From NCBI GenBank assembly GCA_964595565.1, contig CAZQQX010000001.1, positions 8,074 through 72,073 of the forward strand: a stretch of 64,000 nucleotides of DNA, written 5' to 3'. This document shows positions 2,537 to 54,496 of the stretch, piece after piece. The notes below the pieces were generated by a model. That model saw only the letters and a program-made list of their open reading frames with translations, made no database searches and had not been told where the DNA came from. The DNA comes from an uncultured Actinomycetota bacterium. GTDB lineage: Bacteria > Actinomycetota > Humimicrobiia > Humimicrobiales > Humimicrobiaceae. A program made the position numbers and the translations under genes. The first letter of the stretch is position 1. Every line of letters begins with the position of its first letter.

Positions 2537-3172
2537 TTGATTTTAAAAAGATTGGAGTTAGGGGTTTTAAAAGCTAACTGTTATATTTTATCACTGGATT
2601 CTGCAAATGTGATAGTAGACCCGGGCGGAGATTTTGAAACTATAAAAAAAAATCTTAACTATTACAATATAAAACCTGATTTTATATTAAATACCCACGG
2701 TCATTGCGATCATATTGGAGCCGTTGATGATATAATTGGATATTACAATATTCCTTTTTACATACATGAGTTTGAGGAACAAATTATAACAGACCCCGGG
2801 AAGAATCTTTCTTCATTTTTTGGAAGAAATGAATTATCATTAAAAACTTATGATTTAATAAAAGATTCGGATTATAAGTATTTTAAGAATCTGGGTATTG
2901 AAATTATAAATGTCCCGGGTCATACGCCCGGAAGTGTAATGTTTAAAATAGATAATTTTCTTTTAACCGGAGATTTAATTTTTAGAGGCGCAGTGGGAAG
3001 GATAGATTTACCGGGAGGAGATATACGGCAGATAAGAGATTCACTAAGAAAATTAAAAAAAATGGACGGGAGTCTGACAATATATCCGGGTCATGGCGAA
3101 GAAAGTACTATTGAATACGAAATAAAAACAAATTATTATCTTAAGGATAAGTTTTTAGGTGAAAAAAATTAA
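2537..3172 (+). CDS. MBL-fold metallo-hydrolase (glyoxalase II/YcbL-like)
   Basis: THGHCDHIG (HxHxDH), PGHTPGS, TGDLIF and PGHG motifs. It occupies the usual position between relA and hisS. Confidence 0.9.
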   Translation: MILKRLELGVLKANCYILSLDSANVIVDPGGDFETIKKNLNYYNIKPDFILNTHGHCDHIGAVDDIIGYYNIPFYIHEFEEQIITDPGKNLSSFFGRNELSLKTYDLIKDSDYKYFKNLGIEIINVPGHTPGSVMFKIDNFLLTGDLIFRGAVGRIDLPGGDIRQIRDSLRKLKKMDGSLTIYPGHGEESTIEYEIKTNYYLKDKFLGEKN

Positions 3173-3203
3173 AAATGAAATATTATTAAAAAGGTGATTT
3201 ATT

Positions 3204-4475
3204 TTGAAAATAAATTCTCCAAGAGGAACGGCAGATTTATATGGTGAGGATATAGATTACAGAAACTTTGTTATAGATACTGCCCGCCGGGTATTTAAGG
3301 TTTTTAACTATAAAGAAATAATAACTCCTGCTTTTGAATATACCTGGGTATTCAGTAGAAGCATAGGAGAAGTTACCGACATTGTTCAGAAGGAAATGTA
3401 TACGTTCCAGGATAAGAAGGGAAGGTCACTGACTCTGAGACCTGAAGGGACGGCATCTATAGCCAGAGCTGTAATAGAAAATAAAATGTTATTTGAAAAT
3501 CTTCCGTTAAAGGTCTTTTATATAGGTAATATGTTCAGGTATGAAAGGCCCCAGAAGGGCAGAATGAGAGAATTCTGGCAGCTGGGAGTAGAATCTATTG
3601 GAACCGATGACCCGCTTATAGATGCAGAGGTTATATGGATTTTGAATTCTTTTTTTGAGAAACTGGGATTTAAGAAGCTGGTACTCAAAATAAATAGTAT
3701 AGGATGCAGTGAATGCAGGGAAAAATTTCTTTTTGAGTTCAGAAAATATCTGAAGCCGGAGGTAGGTAAACTGTGCGCTGACTGTCAGAAGAGGTTTGGA
3801 AAGAATGCCCTCAGGATATTTGATTGTAAGAAAAGTGGCTGCAGGAGCGTATTAAAGAAAGCACCTTCAATTTTTTCTTATTTATGTCCTGGATGCAGGA
3901 AGAATTTTGAGGAGGTTTTAAAATATCTGGAAGCTCTTGATATAAATTACAGGATTGACCAGAGCCTTGTCCGGGGTTTTGACTATTACACAAGAACAAT
4001 TTTTGAAATAATATCAGAGGACCTCAAGAGTGCCCAGAATGCCCTGGGCGGTGGAGGAAGATATGATAATCTACTGAAACAGCTGGGTGGGCCGGATTTA
4101 CCGGCAACAGGGTTTGCAGTTGGAATTGACCGGACAATTATGCTGATGAAACAGCTAAATTTAAAGATTAAGAAAAATGAAGAAAAGGCAAGAATTTATT
4201 TAATAGCCATGGATAAGAATTGCAAACTTTATTCTTTAGATATTTTAAGGTATCTGAGGGAAGAGAAATTTCTATGCGATATAAATTTTAATAAACGAAG
4301 TTTGAAGAAAGAGATAAAATGGGCTGGCGAGAATGATTATGATTTTATTCTCATAATTGGAGAAGATGAAATTAAAAACGGCTCTATTACTATAAAAGAT
4401 ATTAAAAAATACAGGCAATACCAGGTTAACTGGGAGAATGAAAAGGAAAAAATAAAAAAGATTATAGGAGCTTGA
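3204..4475 (+). CDS. hisS: Histidine--tRNA ligase
   Basis: PRGT, LTLRPEGTAS, FRYERPQKGRMREFWQLG, LVRGFDYYT and GGGRYDNL motifs; TTG start. Confidence 0.97.
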   Translation: MKINSPRGTADLYGEDIDYRNFVIDTARRVFKVFNYKEIITPAFEYTWVFSRSIGEVTDIVQKEMYTFQDKKGRSLTLRPEGTASIARAVIENKMLFENLPLKVFYIGNMFRYERPQKGRMREFWQLGVESIGTDDPLIDAEVIWILNSFFEKLGFKKLVLKINSIGCSECREKFLFEFRKYLKPEVGKLCADCQKRFGKNALRIFDCKKSGCRSVLKKAPSIFSYLCPGCRKNFEEVLKYLEALDINYRIDQSLVRGFDYYTRTIFEIISEDLKSAQNALGGGGRYDNLLKQLGGPDLPATGFAVGIDRTIMLMKQLNLKIKKNEEKARIYLIAMDKNCKLYSLDILRYLREEKFLCDINFNKRSLKKEIKWAGENDYDFILIIGEDEIKNGSITIKDIKKYRQYQVNWENEKEKIKKIIGA

Positions 4476-6346: not shown

Positions 6347-6535
6347 CGGGTACTCTGTTTATTTCGTAACTAAAGTTTAATTTTTGTGCCAACAAATTTA
6401 CATTGGAAGCCCGGGCTTTGATTGTAGCATAAATGCCCGCTTTAAGCGGGACTTATAAAACAGTCAGGAGGGCATCCACCTGCAGAGCGCAGGGCGCAAA
6501 AAACTTCCTGTAGTTACGAGTAAATGGAGTATCCG
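6347..6535 (+). ncRNA. ssrS: 6S RNA
   Basis: 189-nt rod. The 5' CGGGTACTC pairs with 3' GAGTATCCG, TTTATTTCGTAACTA with TAGTTACGAGTAAA, AAGTTT with AAACTT, and TTTTTGTGCC with GGCGCAAAAA. There is a central A-rich bubble and the GAGGGCATCCACCTG motif typical of Firmicutes-type 6S. The position downstream of aspS is a known 6S locus. Confidence 0.85.
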
Positions 6536-49522: not shown

Positions 49523-52117
49523 ATGAGTTTAGATTATTCTTTATACATAATATTGCTAGCTGCGGGAATTATAGTATCAGTTTTATTTTCTGTTTTACTG
49601 ATAAGAAATAGGAATATAGATACCTTAAGTTACGAATTACTGGTAATTACTGGTTGCATATTATGGATTATTGCAGAAATTCATATTGTTTTAAATCCTT
49701 CATTTTATCCGAAATCTATATGGAATATACTAAAATATTCTACTGTAACTATTATCCCTGTATCTTATTTATTGACCATAATAAATAAGACAAATTACAG
49801 GAGCTGGATTACACTTAAAAGAACTATAATATTATTTACAATACCTGTTTTAACTATTTTTTTTATAGCGACCAATAACTTTCACTATTTATTCTGGAGA
49901 AATTTAGCATTGCAGGAAACCAGCAGAGTTAACTTACTGGTATGTGAGGCCGGTATTTTATTCCCAGTGTGGGTAATTTTTTTGTATATAATTATGTTTT
50001 TGACTTACTTTTTTATACTCCGGATAATGATAAAAAAAATGGGCTTTCTGAACCTGAACACATTGAGGGTAGCACTCGTACTGTTAATCCCGTTTGCTAC
50101 CCATTTACTTTATATTATGAGAGTAAAGCCTTTTGATGTTTTTGATATAACATCAGTGGCACTAACCGCAAGTATATTATTAATAATATTTAGATTTACA
50201 AGGTGGGGGATATTTGATTTTTTACCAATTGCTAAGGATATAATAATAGATGACATAAAAGATAACATTGTTGTTATTGATAATAAAAATTGTATTTTAT
50301 ACCTCAATAAATCAGCAATAGACCTGTTTAAATTAAAGAATAAAAATAACAGAGGAAAAAATATAAATAGAATGCTTCCTGCTTATTCTAAATATTTTGA
50401 TAATATTGATTATTCTGATTCCAGAATAAATAAAAATATAATTATTTTTAAAAATAAAATTAAGCGGTATTTTAAAATGACCGTTTATAATATTAACTGC
50501 AGCATTTCAAAAACGCCGTGCAGGATAATCATACTTTATGATATTACAGAACAGAAAAGAATCAATAAATCATTAAACCACAGAATAAAGTTTGAAAACC
50601 TTATAACGAAATTATCAACAAATTTTATAAAAATTCTATCATCTGAAATTGATAATGAAATCAGAAACACTCTTAAAAAAGTAGGGGAATTTACGGGGGC
50701 CGACAGAAGTTATATCTATATTTTTAATGACAGAAAAAGCAGGGCTTTTAGAACTTATGAATGGTGCGGCAAAAATACCGTGCCAAAACCCGGTGTGATA
50801 GAAATAAAAATATTTAAAAAATACTCATTATGGTGGATGGAAAAAATAAATAATTTTGACAGTGTAAACATACAGGATACTTCAGAAGTTAAGCTTAAAA
50901 TAAAAGAAGAAAAAGAGATAATAAAACCTTCCGGGGTTAAATCGATATTAATTCTTCCTCTTATTCACAACAGTAATATTAAAGGATTTCTTGGATTTGA
51001 ATCAATAAAAAATATAAAAAGGTGGACGAACAATGATATAACTCTTCTGAAACTGCTGGCAGAAATTCTGGCAAGTGTTCTGGAACACGAAAAAACAGAA
51101 GAAGAAATTAAAATATTATCCCTGAGGGATAAGTTGACCGGTCTGTACAGTAGGAGTTATTTTGAGGAAGAGCTGAAAAGGCTCGATACAAAAAGGCAGC
51201 TCCCTTTAAGTTTTATAATAGGAGATGTTAATGGGTTAAAACTCATAAATGATGCATTCGGTCCAAAGGAAGGTGACAGGCTATTGATAAAAATGGCCGG
51301 TACAATAAAGAAATGCTGCAGAAAAGAAGATATAATATCCAGGTGGGGAGGTGATGAGTTTTCAATTTTACTTCCCAAAACCAGTGATAAGGATTCCGAG
51401 GAAATATTAAATAGAATAAGAAAGACATGCGCTGGAACAAAAAATAAAAAAGTACCGGTGAGTATCTCCCTCGGAACGGCTACCAAAAAAACTTATAAAA
51501 CCAGTATAGTGCCTGTAATAAAAGAAGCAGAAGATAGCATGTACCGGAGAAAACTGCTTGAAAGAAATAGTATTTCAAGTTCAATAATTTCATCACTTGA
51601 AAGAACCCTCCGGGAAAAAAGTTATGAAACTGAAGAGCATGCCTTAAGAATGAAAGACCTGGCAATAAGATTGGGCCGTTCAATTAATCTAAAGGAAAAT
51701 AAATTGACTGAGCTATCTTTACTCTCAACTCTACATGATATTGGAAAAATTGCTATAACTGACGAAATTTTATTAAAAAAAGGAAAACTAAATGATGAAG
51801 AGTGGAAAATAATAAAAAAACACCCTGAAATAGGGTATAATATCTGTAAATCTTCACCACAGCTTATTTCTGTGGCAGAAGCGGTATTGTGCCATCATGA
51901 ATGGTGGAACGGAACAGGTTATCCCAAAGGGTTAAAAGAGAAAGAAATTCCTCTTAATTCAAGAATAATTTCAATAGTGGACGCTTATGATGTAATGACA
52001 CACGACAGGTCATATAAAAAAGCCATAAGCAGAGATGACGCTATAGCAGAATTGAAAAGATGTGTCGGGACTCAGTTTGACCCTGAACTGGTAGAAATGT
52101 TTATAAATGTTTTATAA
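49523..52117 (+). CDS. Membrane-bound c-di-GMP enzyme: HisKA_7TM-like + PAS + GAF + GGDEF + HD-GYP
   Basis: About seven N-terminal TM helices; IVVID...YLNKSA (PAS); GADRSYIY...YEWC...GFLGF (GAF); DKLTGL, DVNGLKLIND, RWGGDEF; LHDIGK, HHEWWNGTGYP and IVDAYDVM. Confidence 0.88.
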   Translation: MSLDYSLYIILLAAGIIVSVLFSVLLIRNRNIDTLSYELLVITGCILWIIAEIHIVLNPSFYPKSIWNILKYSTVTIIPVSYLLTIINKTNYRSWITLKRTIILFTIPVLTIFFIATNNFHYLFWRNLALQETSRVNLLVCEAGILFPVWVIFLYIIMFLTYFFILRIMIKKMGFLNLNTLRVALVLLIPFATHLLYIMRVKPFDVFDITSVALTASILLIIFRFTRWGIFDFLPIAKDIIIDDIKDNIVVIDNKNCILYLNKSAIDLFKLKNKNNRGKNINRMLPAYSKYFDNIDYSDSRINKNIIIFKNKIKRYFKMTVYNINCSISKTPCRIIILYDITEQKRINKSLNHRIKFENLITKLSTNFIKILSSEIDNEIRNTLKKVGEFTGADRSYIYIFNDRKSRAFRTYEWCGKNTVPKPGVIEIKIFKKYSLWWMEKINNFDSVNIQDTSEVKLKIKEEKEIIKPSGVKSILILPLIHNSNIKGFLGFESIKNIKRWTNNDITLLKLLAEILASVLEHEKTEEEIKILSLRDKLTGLYSRSYFEEELKRLDTKRQLPLSFIIGDVNGLKLINDAFGPKEGDRLLIKMAGTIKKCCRKEDIISRWGGDEFSILLPKTSDKDSEEILNRIRKTCAGTKNKKVPVSISLGTATKKTYKTSIVPVIKEAEDSMYRRKLLERNSISSSIISSLERTLREKSYETEEHALRMKDLAIRLGRSINLKENKLTELSLLSTLHDIGKIAITDEILLKKGKLNDEEWKIIKKHPEIGYNICKSSPQLISVAEAVLCHHEWWNGTGYPKGLKEKEIPLNSRIISIVDAYDVMTHDRSYKKAISRDDAIAELKRCVGTQFDPELVEMFINVL

Positions 52118-52159: not shown

Positions 52160-52897
52160 ATGAATAATATACTCCTGGATGTTTCTTACATAATATCAAT
52201 TATAATAGAAGTAGTATTACCTTTTGTTCTTGGCTTTTTTATCTGGAAGAAATACAGGGTTTCATGGTCAATATTTTTTCTGGGAATGGTATTCTTTTTA
52301 ATATCTCTTACAAGATTGCCTCTAAACAATTATATTAATTCATTAATCCTGGATAATTTTGTAGGAGACACGGCTGTAATGCTTGCAGGTCTATTTATGT
52401 CATTAACCGCAGGTTTATTTGAAGAAGGGGTAAGAATAATAGTATTTGGTTTGATTATAAAACAAAAAAATTACCAGAAAGGAATCATGTACGGAATTGG
52501 TCATGGTGGGGGTGAATCAGCAATCCTGGTCGGTATGTCACTTCTGGCGAGCTTTTTAGCCTATAAATTTTTTCCTGGTTCCCTGCCCGGTTCTACACTG
52601 GCACAACTTACAAATATTGACTGGTATATGCCTTTAATTGGAGCTCTGGAAAGAATCTTTGCTATTTTTATCCAGATTTCATTATCAGTCCTGGTTATAA
52701 ACGCTTTTATAAGAAGAAAAAAATACTTTATATTGATAGCAATATCATATCATGTACTGGTGGATTTTGTTTCTGTTTACACCAATTATATATACGGGGT
52801 TATAACGGCTGAAATATTGATACTTATTTTTGCAGTTATAAGTATAATAATAATTTATGTTCTAAAACCAAAAAAAGAAAAACAGACAACAGGCTAA
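52160..52897 (+). CDS. YhfC family intramembrane glutamic-type protease
   Basis: AGLFEEGVR, GIGHGGGE, ERIFA and a C-terminal His; multi-TM. Confidence 0.82.
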   Translation: MNNILLDVSYIISIIIEVVLPFVLGFFIWKKYRVSWSIFFLGMVFFLISLTRLPLNNYINSLILDNFVGDTAVMLAGLFMSLTAGLFEEGVRIIVFGLIIKQKNYQKGIMYGIGHGGGESAILVGMSLLASFLAYKFFPGSLPGSTLAQLTNIDWYMPLIGALERIFAIFIQISLSVLVINAFIRRKKYFILIAISYHVLVDFVSVYTNYIYGVITAEILILIFAVISIIIIYVLKPKKEKQTTG

Positions 52898-52936
52898 TAA
52901 CAGCTCATTAATTATCAGGTATTTCATTAAACAGGT

Positions 52937-53000
52937 AAATAAAAACCCCGAGTTATCTTTCATCATAGCAAGCGCCTTAGACTACTTAACATCTCGGGGT
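52937..53000 (-). terminator. Terminator-like 3' hairpin of the ncRNA
   Basis: 8-bp GC-rich stem (52945-52952 / 52993-53000), extended by G-U pairs and followed by a U-tract on the minus strand only. Confidence 0.6.
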
Positions 53001-53106
53001 CATCCTCAGAACTTTTCTCAGGGACTTTTCAAATTATTAACCTGTAATTAAATTCTTTCAAATTTAATCTCAAGTTATTTCTGAAAGTTGCCTCCTGTTC
53101 TGAGAT
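52937..53106 (-). ncRNA. Unassigned structured small RNA (~170 nt)
   Basis: It has its own promoter. It folds as a long rod (CUCAGAAC/GUUCUGAG, CAGG/CCUG, ACUUUCAGA/UUUGAAAAGU, UAACUUG/CAGGUUA, GAUUAAAUUU-GAAA-GAAUUUAAUU), followed by ACCCCGAG...CUCGGGGU-UUUUUAUUU. There is no credible ORF. Confidence 0.65.
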
Positions 53107-53112
53107 ATAAAA

Positions 53113-53141
53113 AAGATACCAAAATAAAAAAATGTTGTCAA
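53113..53141 (-). promoter_or_regulatory. sigmaA-type promoter of the minus-strand ncRNA
   Basis: On the minus strand: TTGACA (53141-53136)-N17-TATCTT (53118-53113), with an extended -10 TG. Confidence 0.7.
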
Positions 53142-53374: not shown

Positions 53375-54496
53375 ATGAAAAATATTAAAAAAATAGCAGT
53401 AATAGGACTCGGCCTCATAGGTGGCTCACTGGCCTTATCTTTAAAAAGCGTCAATAAAGATTTTGTTATAAGCGGTTATGACATTAAAGGGGAGTCAATG
53501 AATATAGCCAGATATAGAAATATAATTGATATTATCGCCGGAAGCTATAAAGAAGCAGTCAATAATGCAGAACTTATAATAATAGCAACACCTATCAGTA
53601 ATATAGTTGAAGTGATGAATAATATAAAAAATTATTTGAAAAAGGGAGCAATTGTTACTGATGTCGGGAGCGCAAAAGAAAAGATAGTAAGTAAAGCCAG
53701 TGAGATATTGCCGGAAGACGTGGTTTTTATAGGTGGTCATCCAATGGCCGGTTCGGAAAATGAAGGCATTCTGAGTGCCACCGGGGATTTATTTAAAAAT
53801 GTATTTTATATCCTTACTCCTACGGATACTACCATATCAGAGGCTCTGGTTACATTGCATTCAATCCTTACTAAAATCGGTGCAAAAGTAATCTCTATAG
53901 ACCCGAAAGAGCACGATGAAAATGTTGCTTTGATCAGCCACCTCCCACATGTCCTTTCAACAAACCTGGTTAATATGATAGATGATAAACAGGAAAACAT
54001 GAAAAATCTGTTTAAATTATGTGCCGGTGGTTTTAGAGATATGACAAGAATCGCAGCGGCAAATATAAAGATGTGGCTCGATATAAGCCTGGAAAATAAA
54101 GACAAACTTATAAAATCTATAGAAGACTATACAGAATATTTAAAGGAATTCAGAGATTACCTTAAGAATAATGATTCAGAATCAATAAAAAATCATTATC
54201 TTAAAGCTCAAAAAGCGAGGATCAACCTGCCAAAATATATAGAAAAAGACATATCAAATCTCTATGAGCTAAGAGTGTCCATAGCTGACAAAGCGGGAGT
54301 TTTAAGTGAAATAACAAGAGCTATAAGTTCACACGGTATTAATATCGAGGATATTTCCATTTTTCATTCAACAGAATTTAGCAGCGGTGGAATACTTAAA
54401 ATTCTGGTTCAGGGTGAAGATGCGGGGCAGATATCTAAAGATGCAATAGAAAAAGAAGGTTATGAAGTTAGTGTAAAAAAGGTTCTTGGCGAGTAA
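53375..54496 (+). CDS. tyrA: Prephenate dehydrogenase with C-terminal ACT domain
   Basis: GLGLIGGSLA, TDVGSAK, GGHPMAGSE, EHD..VALISHLPH, GGFRDMTRIA and ACT (DKAGVL..I...GINIEDI). Confidence 0.93.
   Translation: MKNIKKIAVIGLGLIGGSLALSLKSVNKDFVISGYDIKGESMNIARYRNIIDIIAGSYKEAVNNAELIIIATPISNIVEVMNNIKNYLKKGAIVTDVGSAKEKIVSKASEILPEDVVFIGGHPMAGSENEGILSATGDLFKNVFYILTPTDTTISEALVTLHSILTKIGAKVISIDPKEHDENVALISHLPHVLSTNLVNMIDDKQENMKNLFKLCAGGFRDMTRIAAANIKMWLDISLENKDKLIKSIEDYTEYLKEFRDYLKNNDSESIKNHYLKAQKARINLPKYIEKDISNLYELRVSIADKAGVLSEITRAISSHGINIEDISIFHSTEFSSGGILKILVQGEDAGQISKDAIEKEGYEVSVKKVLGE

Follow-up and report, generated by a model that had tools for sequence, protein, structure and literature searches.

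A stand-alone structured RNA gene divergent from tyrA in uncultured Humimicrobiia-like Actinomycetota, with a predicted GAAA tetraloop receptor in its terminator hairpin

The window analyzed here is a 64,000-nucleotide stretch of contig CAZQQX010000001.1 (assembly GCA_964595565.1), from a genome of an uncultured Actinomycetota bacterium recovered from a salt-marsh metagenome. On its minus strand, positions 53141-52937 comprise a promoter, a transcript of ~165 nt (~53106 to 52942), and an intrinsic terminator. From comparative sequence analysis we favor, with somewhat less than even confidence, the interpretation that this locus encodes, as a stand-alone gene, an abundant RNA with a compact fold that would act in trans and bind a protein or a small ligand. 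The gene is expressed from a conserved sigma-70-type promoter of its own and ends in an intrinsic terminator, its transcript accumulates as a discrete species, and compensatory mutation has maintained the secondary structure. The RNA forms a new family assembled from known motifs, and its general kind, the stand-alone structured bacterial RNA, is known. To our knowledge, no RNA biology has been described for Humimicrobiia-like Actinomycetota.

Promoter, terminator, and transcript of a conserved RNA gene

At least 40 homologues were found in metagenome-assembled genomes (MAGs) and metagenomes of Hydromicrobium/Humimicrobiales-like Actinomycetota, and the family is so far restricted to these low-GC, uncultured organisms. 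The genomes closest to the window are MAGs labelled Actinomycetota, Candidatus Hydromicrobium, or Humimicrobiales. Among species-representative genomes, the RNA lies upstream of tyrA on the opposite strand at eight of ten actinobacterial tyrA loci; at the other two, the RNA is separated from tyrA (L008) or the contig is truncated (L015). A metagenome scan that used a 21-base pattern from the 3′ part of the RNA only returned 25 loci, all 25 with GGAGGCAAC located 62-64 nt upstream and almost all with TTGACA at the same offset. Because both of these elements lay outside the search pattern, there are no chance matches among the 25 loci. A covariance model (R1) then found the RNA beside more distant tyrA relatives of 65-72% protein identity (L043, L046, and L050-L054). 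The same model found it at the apparent exception L008, where two glycoside-hydrolase genes are inserted before tyrA, as they are in L034. At loci of a clade in which rluB directly abuts tyrA (L044 and L047-49) the RNA was absent.

The covariance model identified a single copy in the window (52940-53109, 183 bits). A second, diverged copy is present in two contigs, L026 (4115-4286, minus strand) and L027 (679-849, minus strand), scoring 96 bits and located ~1.8 kb from the first. It occupies the previous operon boundary, where its convergent neighbor is rluB and its divergent neighbor encodes a 199-aa membrane protein.

The window RNA, whose features are all given here on the minus strand, is preceded by a -35 box, TTGACA (53136-53141), and, after a 17-nt spacer, by an extended -10 box, TGgTATCTT (53113-53121). 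This is the arrangement that an original prediction, made from the sequence of the window, had named as TTGACA-N17-TGnTATCTT. It is the best promoter-like site of its region (10/12 matches plus the extended TG), but such sites are frequent in this DNA of 33.5% G+C (17 found versus 12.2 expected), and because they are common in AT-rich DNA the match by itself proves little. The weight of the promoter call comes instead from its conservation. All homologues except two truncated copies keep the -35 box at the same distance from GGAGGCAAC, 37 nt upstream of it, the -10 box is kept as TGRTATCTT, and identity to the window copy is 55-100% over the promoter versus 34-69% over the adjacent spacer (91% for the spacer in the nearest relative, L007). 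The predicted start, A53106, is 7 nt past the -10 box, and the 3′ end falls within the U-tract UUUUUAUUU (52937-52945) that follows a G+C-rich stem. The terminator hairpin encloses ~45 nt, an unusual length that explains why a simple terminator scan did not list it.

Transcription was examined in orthologues, as no RNA run contained the exact variant of the window. The commonest orthologue type, L013, is present in metatranscriptomes of several studies. In L013 the -10 box ends at 3773, the seventh base following it is A3766, and the U-tract occupies 3604-3599. In eight metatranscriptome runs, contigs coincide exactly with the interval from promoter to terminator: on L013 they extend over 3603-3766, leave the intergenic DNA on either side essentially empty, and stop at the U-tract without read-through. 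Depth over the RNA, which is the assembler's own measure, was 108-125 in run X24, 57-67 in X25, and 33-40 in X26, with ~0 in the intergenic flanks. In two soil runs (X30 and X32) it reached 1000-1900, with 0-4 in the flanks; related variants in these runs span 3601-3752, and sequencing adapters abut the fragments. Since the contigs coincide sharply with the predicted start and stop while the flanks are empty, they argue for a discrete, very abundant RNA rather than DNA carry-over. The transcript ends given for the window are inferred from the L013 orthologue, where the contigs span 3599/3603 to 3766, and the start near 53106 and the terminator, both as originally predicted, agree with these boundaries. 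Several runs also contained fold-back contigs at L013:3640-3758 (X24 contig 2; also X25, X26, and X28), which map twice to one stretch of 24-30 bases, first in forward and then in reverse orientation; they look like an assembly or cDNA hairpin artefact at a strongly paired rod.

A covarying fold with a predicted tetraloop-receptor pair

The RNA folds with a predicted free energy of -54.6 kcal/mol (z = -6.2), a value matched by 0 of 200 shuffles, versus only -38.9 kcal/mol when the plus strand is folded over this stretch. Eleven of 59 predicted pairs are G-U, and because the minus strand folds better and uses many such pairs, the structure belongs to that strand. It has two domains, much as first described: a ~100-nt rod with CUCAGAAC/GUUCUGAG as its closing helix and a GAAA tetraloop at its tip, and a hairpin in which the stem ACCCCGAG/CUCGGGGU encloses CUAAG...CUAUG and the U-tract follows. 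Most of these parts are backed by covariation.

In an alignment of 24 non-identical sequences, 96.4% of cells are able to pair and both sides have changed in 19 of 44 pairs. None of 500 shuffles reached any of the measures, and sliding the partners by 1-3 columns dropped pairing to 32-54%. When the alignment was extended to 32 sequences with distant orthologues and second copies, fitted to the covariance model, double changes were found in 33 of 44 pairs, or in 35 of 48 when a four-pair extension of P3 is counted, and again shuffles fell short on every measure. Every helix covaries except for three invariant AGG/CCU pairs. The terminator stem is one of the covarying helices, reading CCCCGAG/CUCGGGG, UCCCGAG/CUCGGGA, or CUCCAAG/CUUGGAG in different homologues. 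A naive search for pseudoknots, in which all positions were compared for covariation, was dominated by phylogenetic signal and gave only pairs 125-172 and 127-170 of the P3 extension, which were later confirmed to covary. The secondary structure (P1, the P2a/P2b/apical arm, and P3/P3a/P3b) is thus maintained by compensatory mutation. Identity to the window copy, leaving aside L007 (>90% identical in every segment), is 72-87% for the RNA versus 70-78% for tyrA coding DNA and 34-69% for the adjacent spacer.

Helix P1 is formed by UCUCAGAAC (53097-53105) and GUUCUGAGG (53004-53012), with compensatory changes in seven of its nine pairs. It leads into a core whose 5′ strand, AGGAGGCAAC (53087-53096), includes GAGGCAAC (53094-53087), invariant in 32 of 32 sequences, and whose 3′ strand, AGUCCCUGAGAAAA (53013-53026), holds an invariant CCUG and the A-rich bulge GAGAAAA. 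Between them is the P2 arm (53027-53086), consisting of P2a, P2b, and an apical hairpin, which is variable in sequence and fixed in length and covaries in all three helices. GGAGGCAAC and CCCUGAG are 62-64 nt apart in all copies but L010, whose arm contains an insertion. The GAAA tetraloop at the tip of the arm (53056-53059) is invariant in all 32 sequences above a variable stem. After a linker of 5-6 variable nt, P3 pairs ACCCCGAGA (52992-53000) with CUCGGGGU (52945-52952); four of its eight pairs covary in the alignment that takes in distant orthologues and the second copies, and it continues in the weak pairs UGUU/GAUA. Two non-helical regions are invariant: one, where the arm begins, consists of GAGGCAAC facing CCUGAGAAAAG, and the other is an AGUA/RAAA loop above P3.

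The insertion in L010 (2905-3059, minus strand) is a unique 155-nt segment in the 5′ strand of the apical hairpin, with 48% G+C versus ~35% in the host RNA. It contains four predicted hairpins, two of which carry GGGUCUUUAGCCC, and it had no Rfam match, no open reading frame (ORF), and no other copy among the loci examined. The remaining fold and the GAAA loop are intact. An insertion of this kind was tolerated only at the arm, away from the cores.

The CUAAG...CUAUG element is an internal loop, YCUAAR/UAUGR, located between the covarying helices P3a and P3b, and it corresponds to a canonical 11-nt GAAA-tetraloop receptor inside the terminator hairpin. This putative receptor role for the GAAA loop is a new point, absent from the original prediction. 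The 11-nt receptor motif is CCUAAG/UAUGG, with C2:G10, U3, A4, and A8 conserved (PMC2615604, PMC2275092). In the window, the 5′ half reads UCUAAG (52976-52981) and the 3′ half UAUGA (52963-52967). Positions C2, U3, A4, A8 (52966), and G10 (52964), which make up the A-minor site and UA-handle, are invariant in 32 of 32 sequences. Pair 1:11 covaries (C-G in 21 and U-A in 11), position 5 holds either of the platforms found in nature, A or C, pair 6:7 is G.U, A-U, or A.C, and position 9, the flipped-out base, varies. Published work on the motif describes the same pattern of tolerance (PMC2615604, PMC2275092). The cognate loop is strictly GAAA and not merely GNRA in all 32 sequences. The second copy keeps GAGGCAAC, GAAA, and UCCUGAGAAAAG together with a fully canonical CCUAAG/UAUGG receptor. 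Loop, receptor, and fixed arm length together point to a compact tertiary fold.

When helical levels are counted, the receptor is ~20 levels from the bottom of the 3′ hairpin, whereas the GAAA loop is ~48 levels along the arm. The two would come level if the arm turned by ~180 degrees at the variable internal loop beneath the apical hairpin; otherwise the contact would be intermolecular. Intermolecular tetraloop-receptor docking is known from designed tectoRNAs and from recently imaged RNA-only assemblies. It is conceivable that the RNA is self-assembling, with the loop of one molecule docked in the receptor of another to give homodimers or multimers, although we regard this as improbable. The sharp bend required for intramolecular docking speaks for such an assembly, and so does the fixed arm length, which fits the intramolecular geometry equally; the bend that the variable internal loop would allow speaks against it. 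Self-assembly also overlaps with the interpretation that we favor, an RNA that binds a factor in trans, because the assembly could itself be the binding platform.

The AGG/CCU pairing that never varies would bury an AGGAGG sequence, and the second copy reads AUGAGG at this site, so that only GAGGCAAC is invariant in the region. Translation from AGGAGG was rejected as a candidate, since no usable start codon is found except in L014 and the second copy lacks the sequence. A coding role as a small-protein or dual-function mRNA, or as a type I toxin, would otherwise depend on a 34-codon ORF at 52966-52862 (MMKDNSGFLF...), and we consider it very improbable. It is true that the AUG of the receptor region is nearly invariant and that the window ORF is hydrophobic, but the AUG is explained by the UAUGG of the receptor and AGGAGG has no start codon at a usable distance. 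In addition, the ORF crosses the terminator, has 11 codons in L016 versus 34 in the window, and continues into sequence past the U-tract that is unrelated among homologues. The 34-codon ORF (52862-52966, minus strand; MMKDNSGFLFTCLMKYLIINELLLACCLFFFFWF), which runs from the receptor AUG through the terminator into the end of yhfC, was judged spurious. In L051, a called 125-aa ORF without a Pfam match (3127-3504, plus strand) overlaps the RNA gene on the opposite strand and is probably a gene-calling artefact from the unannotated RNA.

Genomic setting and candidate functions

The RNA gene is convergent with the YhfC-family gene yhfC (52160-52897) and divergent from tyrA (53375-54496), as had been predicted. 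All of the ~57 gene-sized ORFs in the window are on the plus strand, and the minus-strand ORFs of at least 120 aa are all inside plus-strand genes. The RNA gene is the only evident minus-strand unit of the window, in line with the earlier reading, and is transcribed head-on to the surrounding genes. It is divergent from tyrA at nearly all loci, and the next downstream gene is convergent in all full-length copies. The identity of that gene differs in at least seven ways (yhfC, DXP synthase, GGDEF/HD-GYP, aminotransferase, NAD synthase, transaldolase, and DsbH-like), which excludes a specific cis or antisense target, makes a role in cis unlikely, and agrees with the original view that the RNA has no downstream gene to control. 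Antisense pairing with yhfC was rejected as a candidate on the same ground.

Adjacency to tyrA is not strictly required, because interruptions in L034/L055 and in L046 leave the RNA intact. In one sublineage GH130 and GH2 glycoside-hydrolase genes are inserted between the RNA and tyrA (L055:3020-6801; L034), and in L046 the two are separated by a gene for a 343-aa protein of unknown family. Truncated copies were found in L033 (2027-2162, plus strand) and L036 (1965-2100, minus strand), in which the 5′ domain is whole and the 3′ domain is cut after GAGAUGUUGAGUAGC with no receptor. They have no TTGACA and are co-directional between corrinoid-protein-like and iron-type alcohol dehydrogenase-like genes; such a copy could be a relic or a differently wired variant.

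One reading in which the RNA itself is incidental takes the locus as a cis-antisense element or insulator, where strong convergent transcription, together with the hairpins, would block or cleave transcripts that read through into tyrA from the plus-strand operon upstream. A head-on position at operon boundaries, in otherwise co-directional genomes, is indeed common to the orthologues and the second copy. However, the compensatory evolution, the minus-specific G-U pairs, the invariant loops, and the tetraloop-receptor pair indicate selection on the folded RNA itself, and other genes lie between the RNA and tyrA in L034, L055, and L046 with the RNA unchanged. We consider an insulator quite improbable.

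In our preferred interpretation, the fixed-length P2 arm would fold back, or reach a second molecule, and dock its GAAA loop in the receptor of the 3′ hairpin; the terminator stem would double as part of the functional fold. This clamp may set the two invariant non-helical regions, GAGGCAAC/CCUGAGAAAAG and the AGUA/RAAA loop, side by side as one recognition surface for a trans factor, which would be a protein or possibly a small ligand. On this view the RNA would be part of a ribonucleoprotein or a sensor, and neither antisense pairing nor control of a downstream gene would be its mode of action. A bolder reading is that it is a new class of sensor or assembly RNA, either an orphan aptamer that holds a metabolite or second messenger between the invariant loops and acts in trans or a multimer joined by reciprocal tetraloop-receptor contacts; we see this as possible but on the unlikely side.

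Several points weigh against the preferred interpretation. The contigs from the RNA runs carry no strand information, and they represent orthologues that share 84-95% identity with the window copy. The near-constant place of the RNA beside tyrA is not accounted for by a purely trans-acting role. The bare receptor pattern is not rare by chance in this DNA (4 found versus 10.7 expected), and the receptor assignment for this reason rests on helical context and conservation. Docking of loop and receptor is inferred from sequence, with indirect support from the fixed arm length, and its intramolecular feasibility is a matter of helix counting. The step from fold to function is purely inferential.

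The original prediction had offered a trans-acting small RNA (sRNA) among its candidates, and the part of this that stands is an independent non-coding gene with no target in cis; a simple base-pairing mode is less likely. In a classical base-pairing sRNA, target mRNAs, perhaps that of the tyrA-aroA operon, would be bound through an exposed conserved segment, either the GAGAAAA bulge or GAGGCAAC. A stand-alone gene with a Rho-independent terminator, high expression, and a conserved place beside tyrA would suit such a regulator. Yet the only conserved unpaired run is the 7-nt purine bulge, which is not complementary to ribosome-binding sites, and the linker between the hairpins is variable. A tetraloop-receptor pair, a fixed arm length, and conserved internal loops are also unusual for seed-type sRNAs. 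Because the conserved nucleotides are in internal loops of a fold that appears tertiary-locked and not in an open seed, we find a base-pairing sRNA unlikely. A crude RNAduplex search against the 57 gene starts of the window was dominated by long spurious duplexes and thus carried little information; it gave no specific target, and tyrA ranked low at -21.5 kcal/mol.

Other functions that had been proposed for the RNA were not supported. A protein sponge of the CsrA/RsmA type would be expected to present GGA motifs in several hairpin loops, whereas the RNA has a single conserved GGA-like site within the core. An orphan antitoxin has no conserved ORF partner here. An origin from a mobile element is contradicted by the single window copy, the stable synteny, and the lack of any RNA match in a scan of 2.9 million viral contigs.

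The RNA reaches very high levels in soil and sediment metatranscriptomes and marks Humimicrobiia-like Actinomycetota. The covariance model can be used to annotate it in MAGs. It is small enough for structure determination, with a predicted GAAA/11-nt receptor clamp around two invariant loops. If these loops do bind a ligand or protein, the RNA would represent a new riboswitch-like or ribonucleoprotein class; as a sensor or assembly RNA, it would give an uncultured actinobacterial class a regulatory or structural RNA that is highly expressed and was previously unrecognized. Even as a lineage-specific sRNA it would be a well-supported new family for Rfam.

Comparison with known RNAs

A scan of the whole window with Rfam 15 (4227 models) at the gathering threshold yielded only 6S RNA and tRNA-Pro (61618), and nothing at the RNA site. 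Relaxed scans at E ≤ 10 of the window copy, a distant orthologue, and a second copy gave unrelated noise of at most 23 bits with no recurring family; RsmY appeared as 13.6-bit noise on the L010 insertion copy alone. The original statement that the RNA does not match 6S, SRP, tmRNA, RNase P, T-box, or the common riboswitches is borne out by these scans. The canonical 6S RNA gene, at 6349-6534 on the plus strand between two plus-strand genes (RF00013, 97.4 bits, full length), demonstrates that standard housekeeping RNA models work on this lineage. Resemblances to RNase P CR-I (GAAAAGUCC), the SRP domain IV tetraloop, the hammerhead CUGANGA core, hairpin-ribozyme loops, the K-turn, and the T-box were considered as leads, and none fits or has an Rfam match. 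In the literature, no paper was found that names a tyrA, yhfC, or aroA RNA motif, and, as far as the sources could be seen, the lineage name led to general metagenomic surveys only.

The nearest architecture is that of the c-di-GMP-I riboswitch (GEMM, RF01051). GEMM has two adjacent hairpins with GAAA on the first, an 11-nt receptor on the second, and a terminator at the second, and it is located upstream of a gene in 297 of 309 cases (PMC1950547). The RNA described here shares the adjacent hairpins, the GNRA/GAAA loop on the first, the receptor on the second, and the shared terminator. It differs in its first hairpin (~100 nt versus ~40 nt in GEMM), in its linker (5-6 variable nt versus AAA), in its conserved junction sequences, and in its position, as GEMM sits 5′ of a gene whereas this RNA is upstream of none, the next gene being convergent. 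RF01051 gave no match at E ≤ 10 to the window copy, the distant orthologue, or the second copy. Because the sequence model, the linker rule, and the 5′-of-gene position of GEMM all fail, the RNA is not a GEMM member.

The likeness does raise the question of a riboswitch-like conditional terminator, in which a clamped two-hairpin aptamer uses P3 as its expression platform. A ligand would then decide between a stop at 52942 and an antisense run into the convergent plus-strand operon, or the element would insulate tyrA from upstream read-through. Besides the GEMM-I-like architecture with its terminator, the place of the receptor within an unusually long terminator hairpin (~45 nt enclosed) speaks for such a role, and at many loci a GGDEF/HD-GYP gene is the convergent neighbor or one gene off. 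However, the convergent gene varies widely, P3 is strong and nearly invariant with ~8 G+C-rich pairs, no conserved antiterminator pairing was found, and no riboswitch model scores even at E ≤ 10. The RNA-run contigs end at the U-tract, and a resemblance of CCCUGAG to CCCCGAG is gone in the second copy. We think a conditional terminator unlikely. A switch by pairing of CCCUGAG with CUCGGGG was rejected because that resemblance is lost in the second copy. As observations on the setting, an HD-GYP or GGDEF protein is the convergent neighbor in L009, L011, L020, L025, and L028, and in the window an 864-aa 7TM-GAF-GGDEF-HD-GYP protein is encoded two genes upstream (49523-52117, plus strand). This synteny may be coincidental, although it deserves mention given the GEMM-like architecture.

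The P4-P6 domain of group I introns combines a GAAA loop, an 11-nt receptor, and an A-rich bulge. Similarly, the RNA has a GAAA loop on a long arm, a predicted receptor on the neighboring helix, and an invariant A-rich bulge by a conserved G+C helix. It is unlike P4-P6 in being free-standing, with a promoter and terminator, outside introns, and without a catalytic core, and an A-rich-bulge contact is speculative. In Listeria, SreA and SreB are terminated SAM riboswitches upstream of genes that act in trans. The RNA resembles them in having an aptamer-like fold that ends at a terminator and is released as a small RNA, and differs in having no recognized aptamer class and no downstream gene. The RNA polymerase-binding 6S and Ms1 RNAs are likewise abundant, rod-like, and stand-alone. 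A mimic of this kind had been suggested, and it is disfavored because the RNA has no central open-promoter-like bubble and no model match, and the true 6S RNA is encoded elsewhere in the window.

Stand-alone bacterial RNAs with real tertiary architecture are few, comprising RNase P, SRP, 6S, tmRNA, OLE, raiA, and ROOL/GOLLD, and each has been instructive on RNA-protein machines or RNA-only assemblies. Although raiA, OLE, and ROOL/GOLLD are all in Rfam without matching the RNA, which is smaller, of another architecture, from another lineage, and not homologous to them, it is like them in being independently transcribed, highly structured, lineage-restricted, and abundant, with invariant loop nucleotides.

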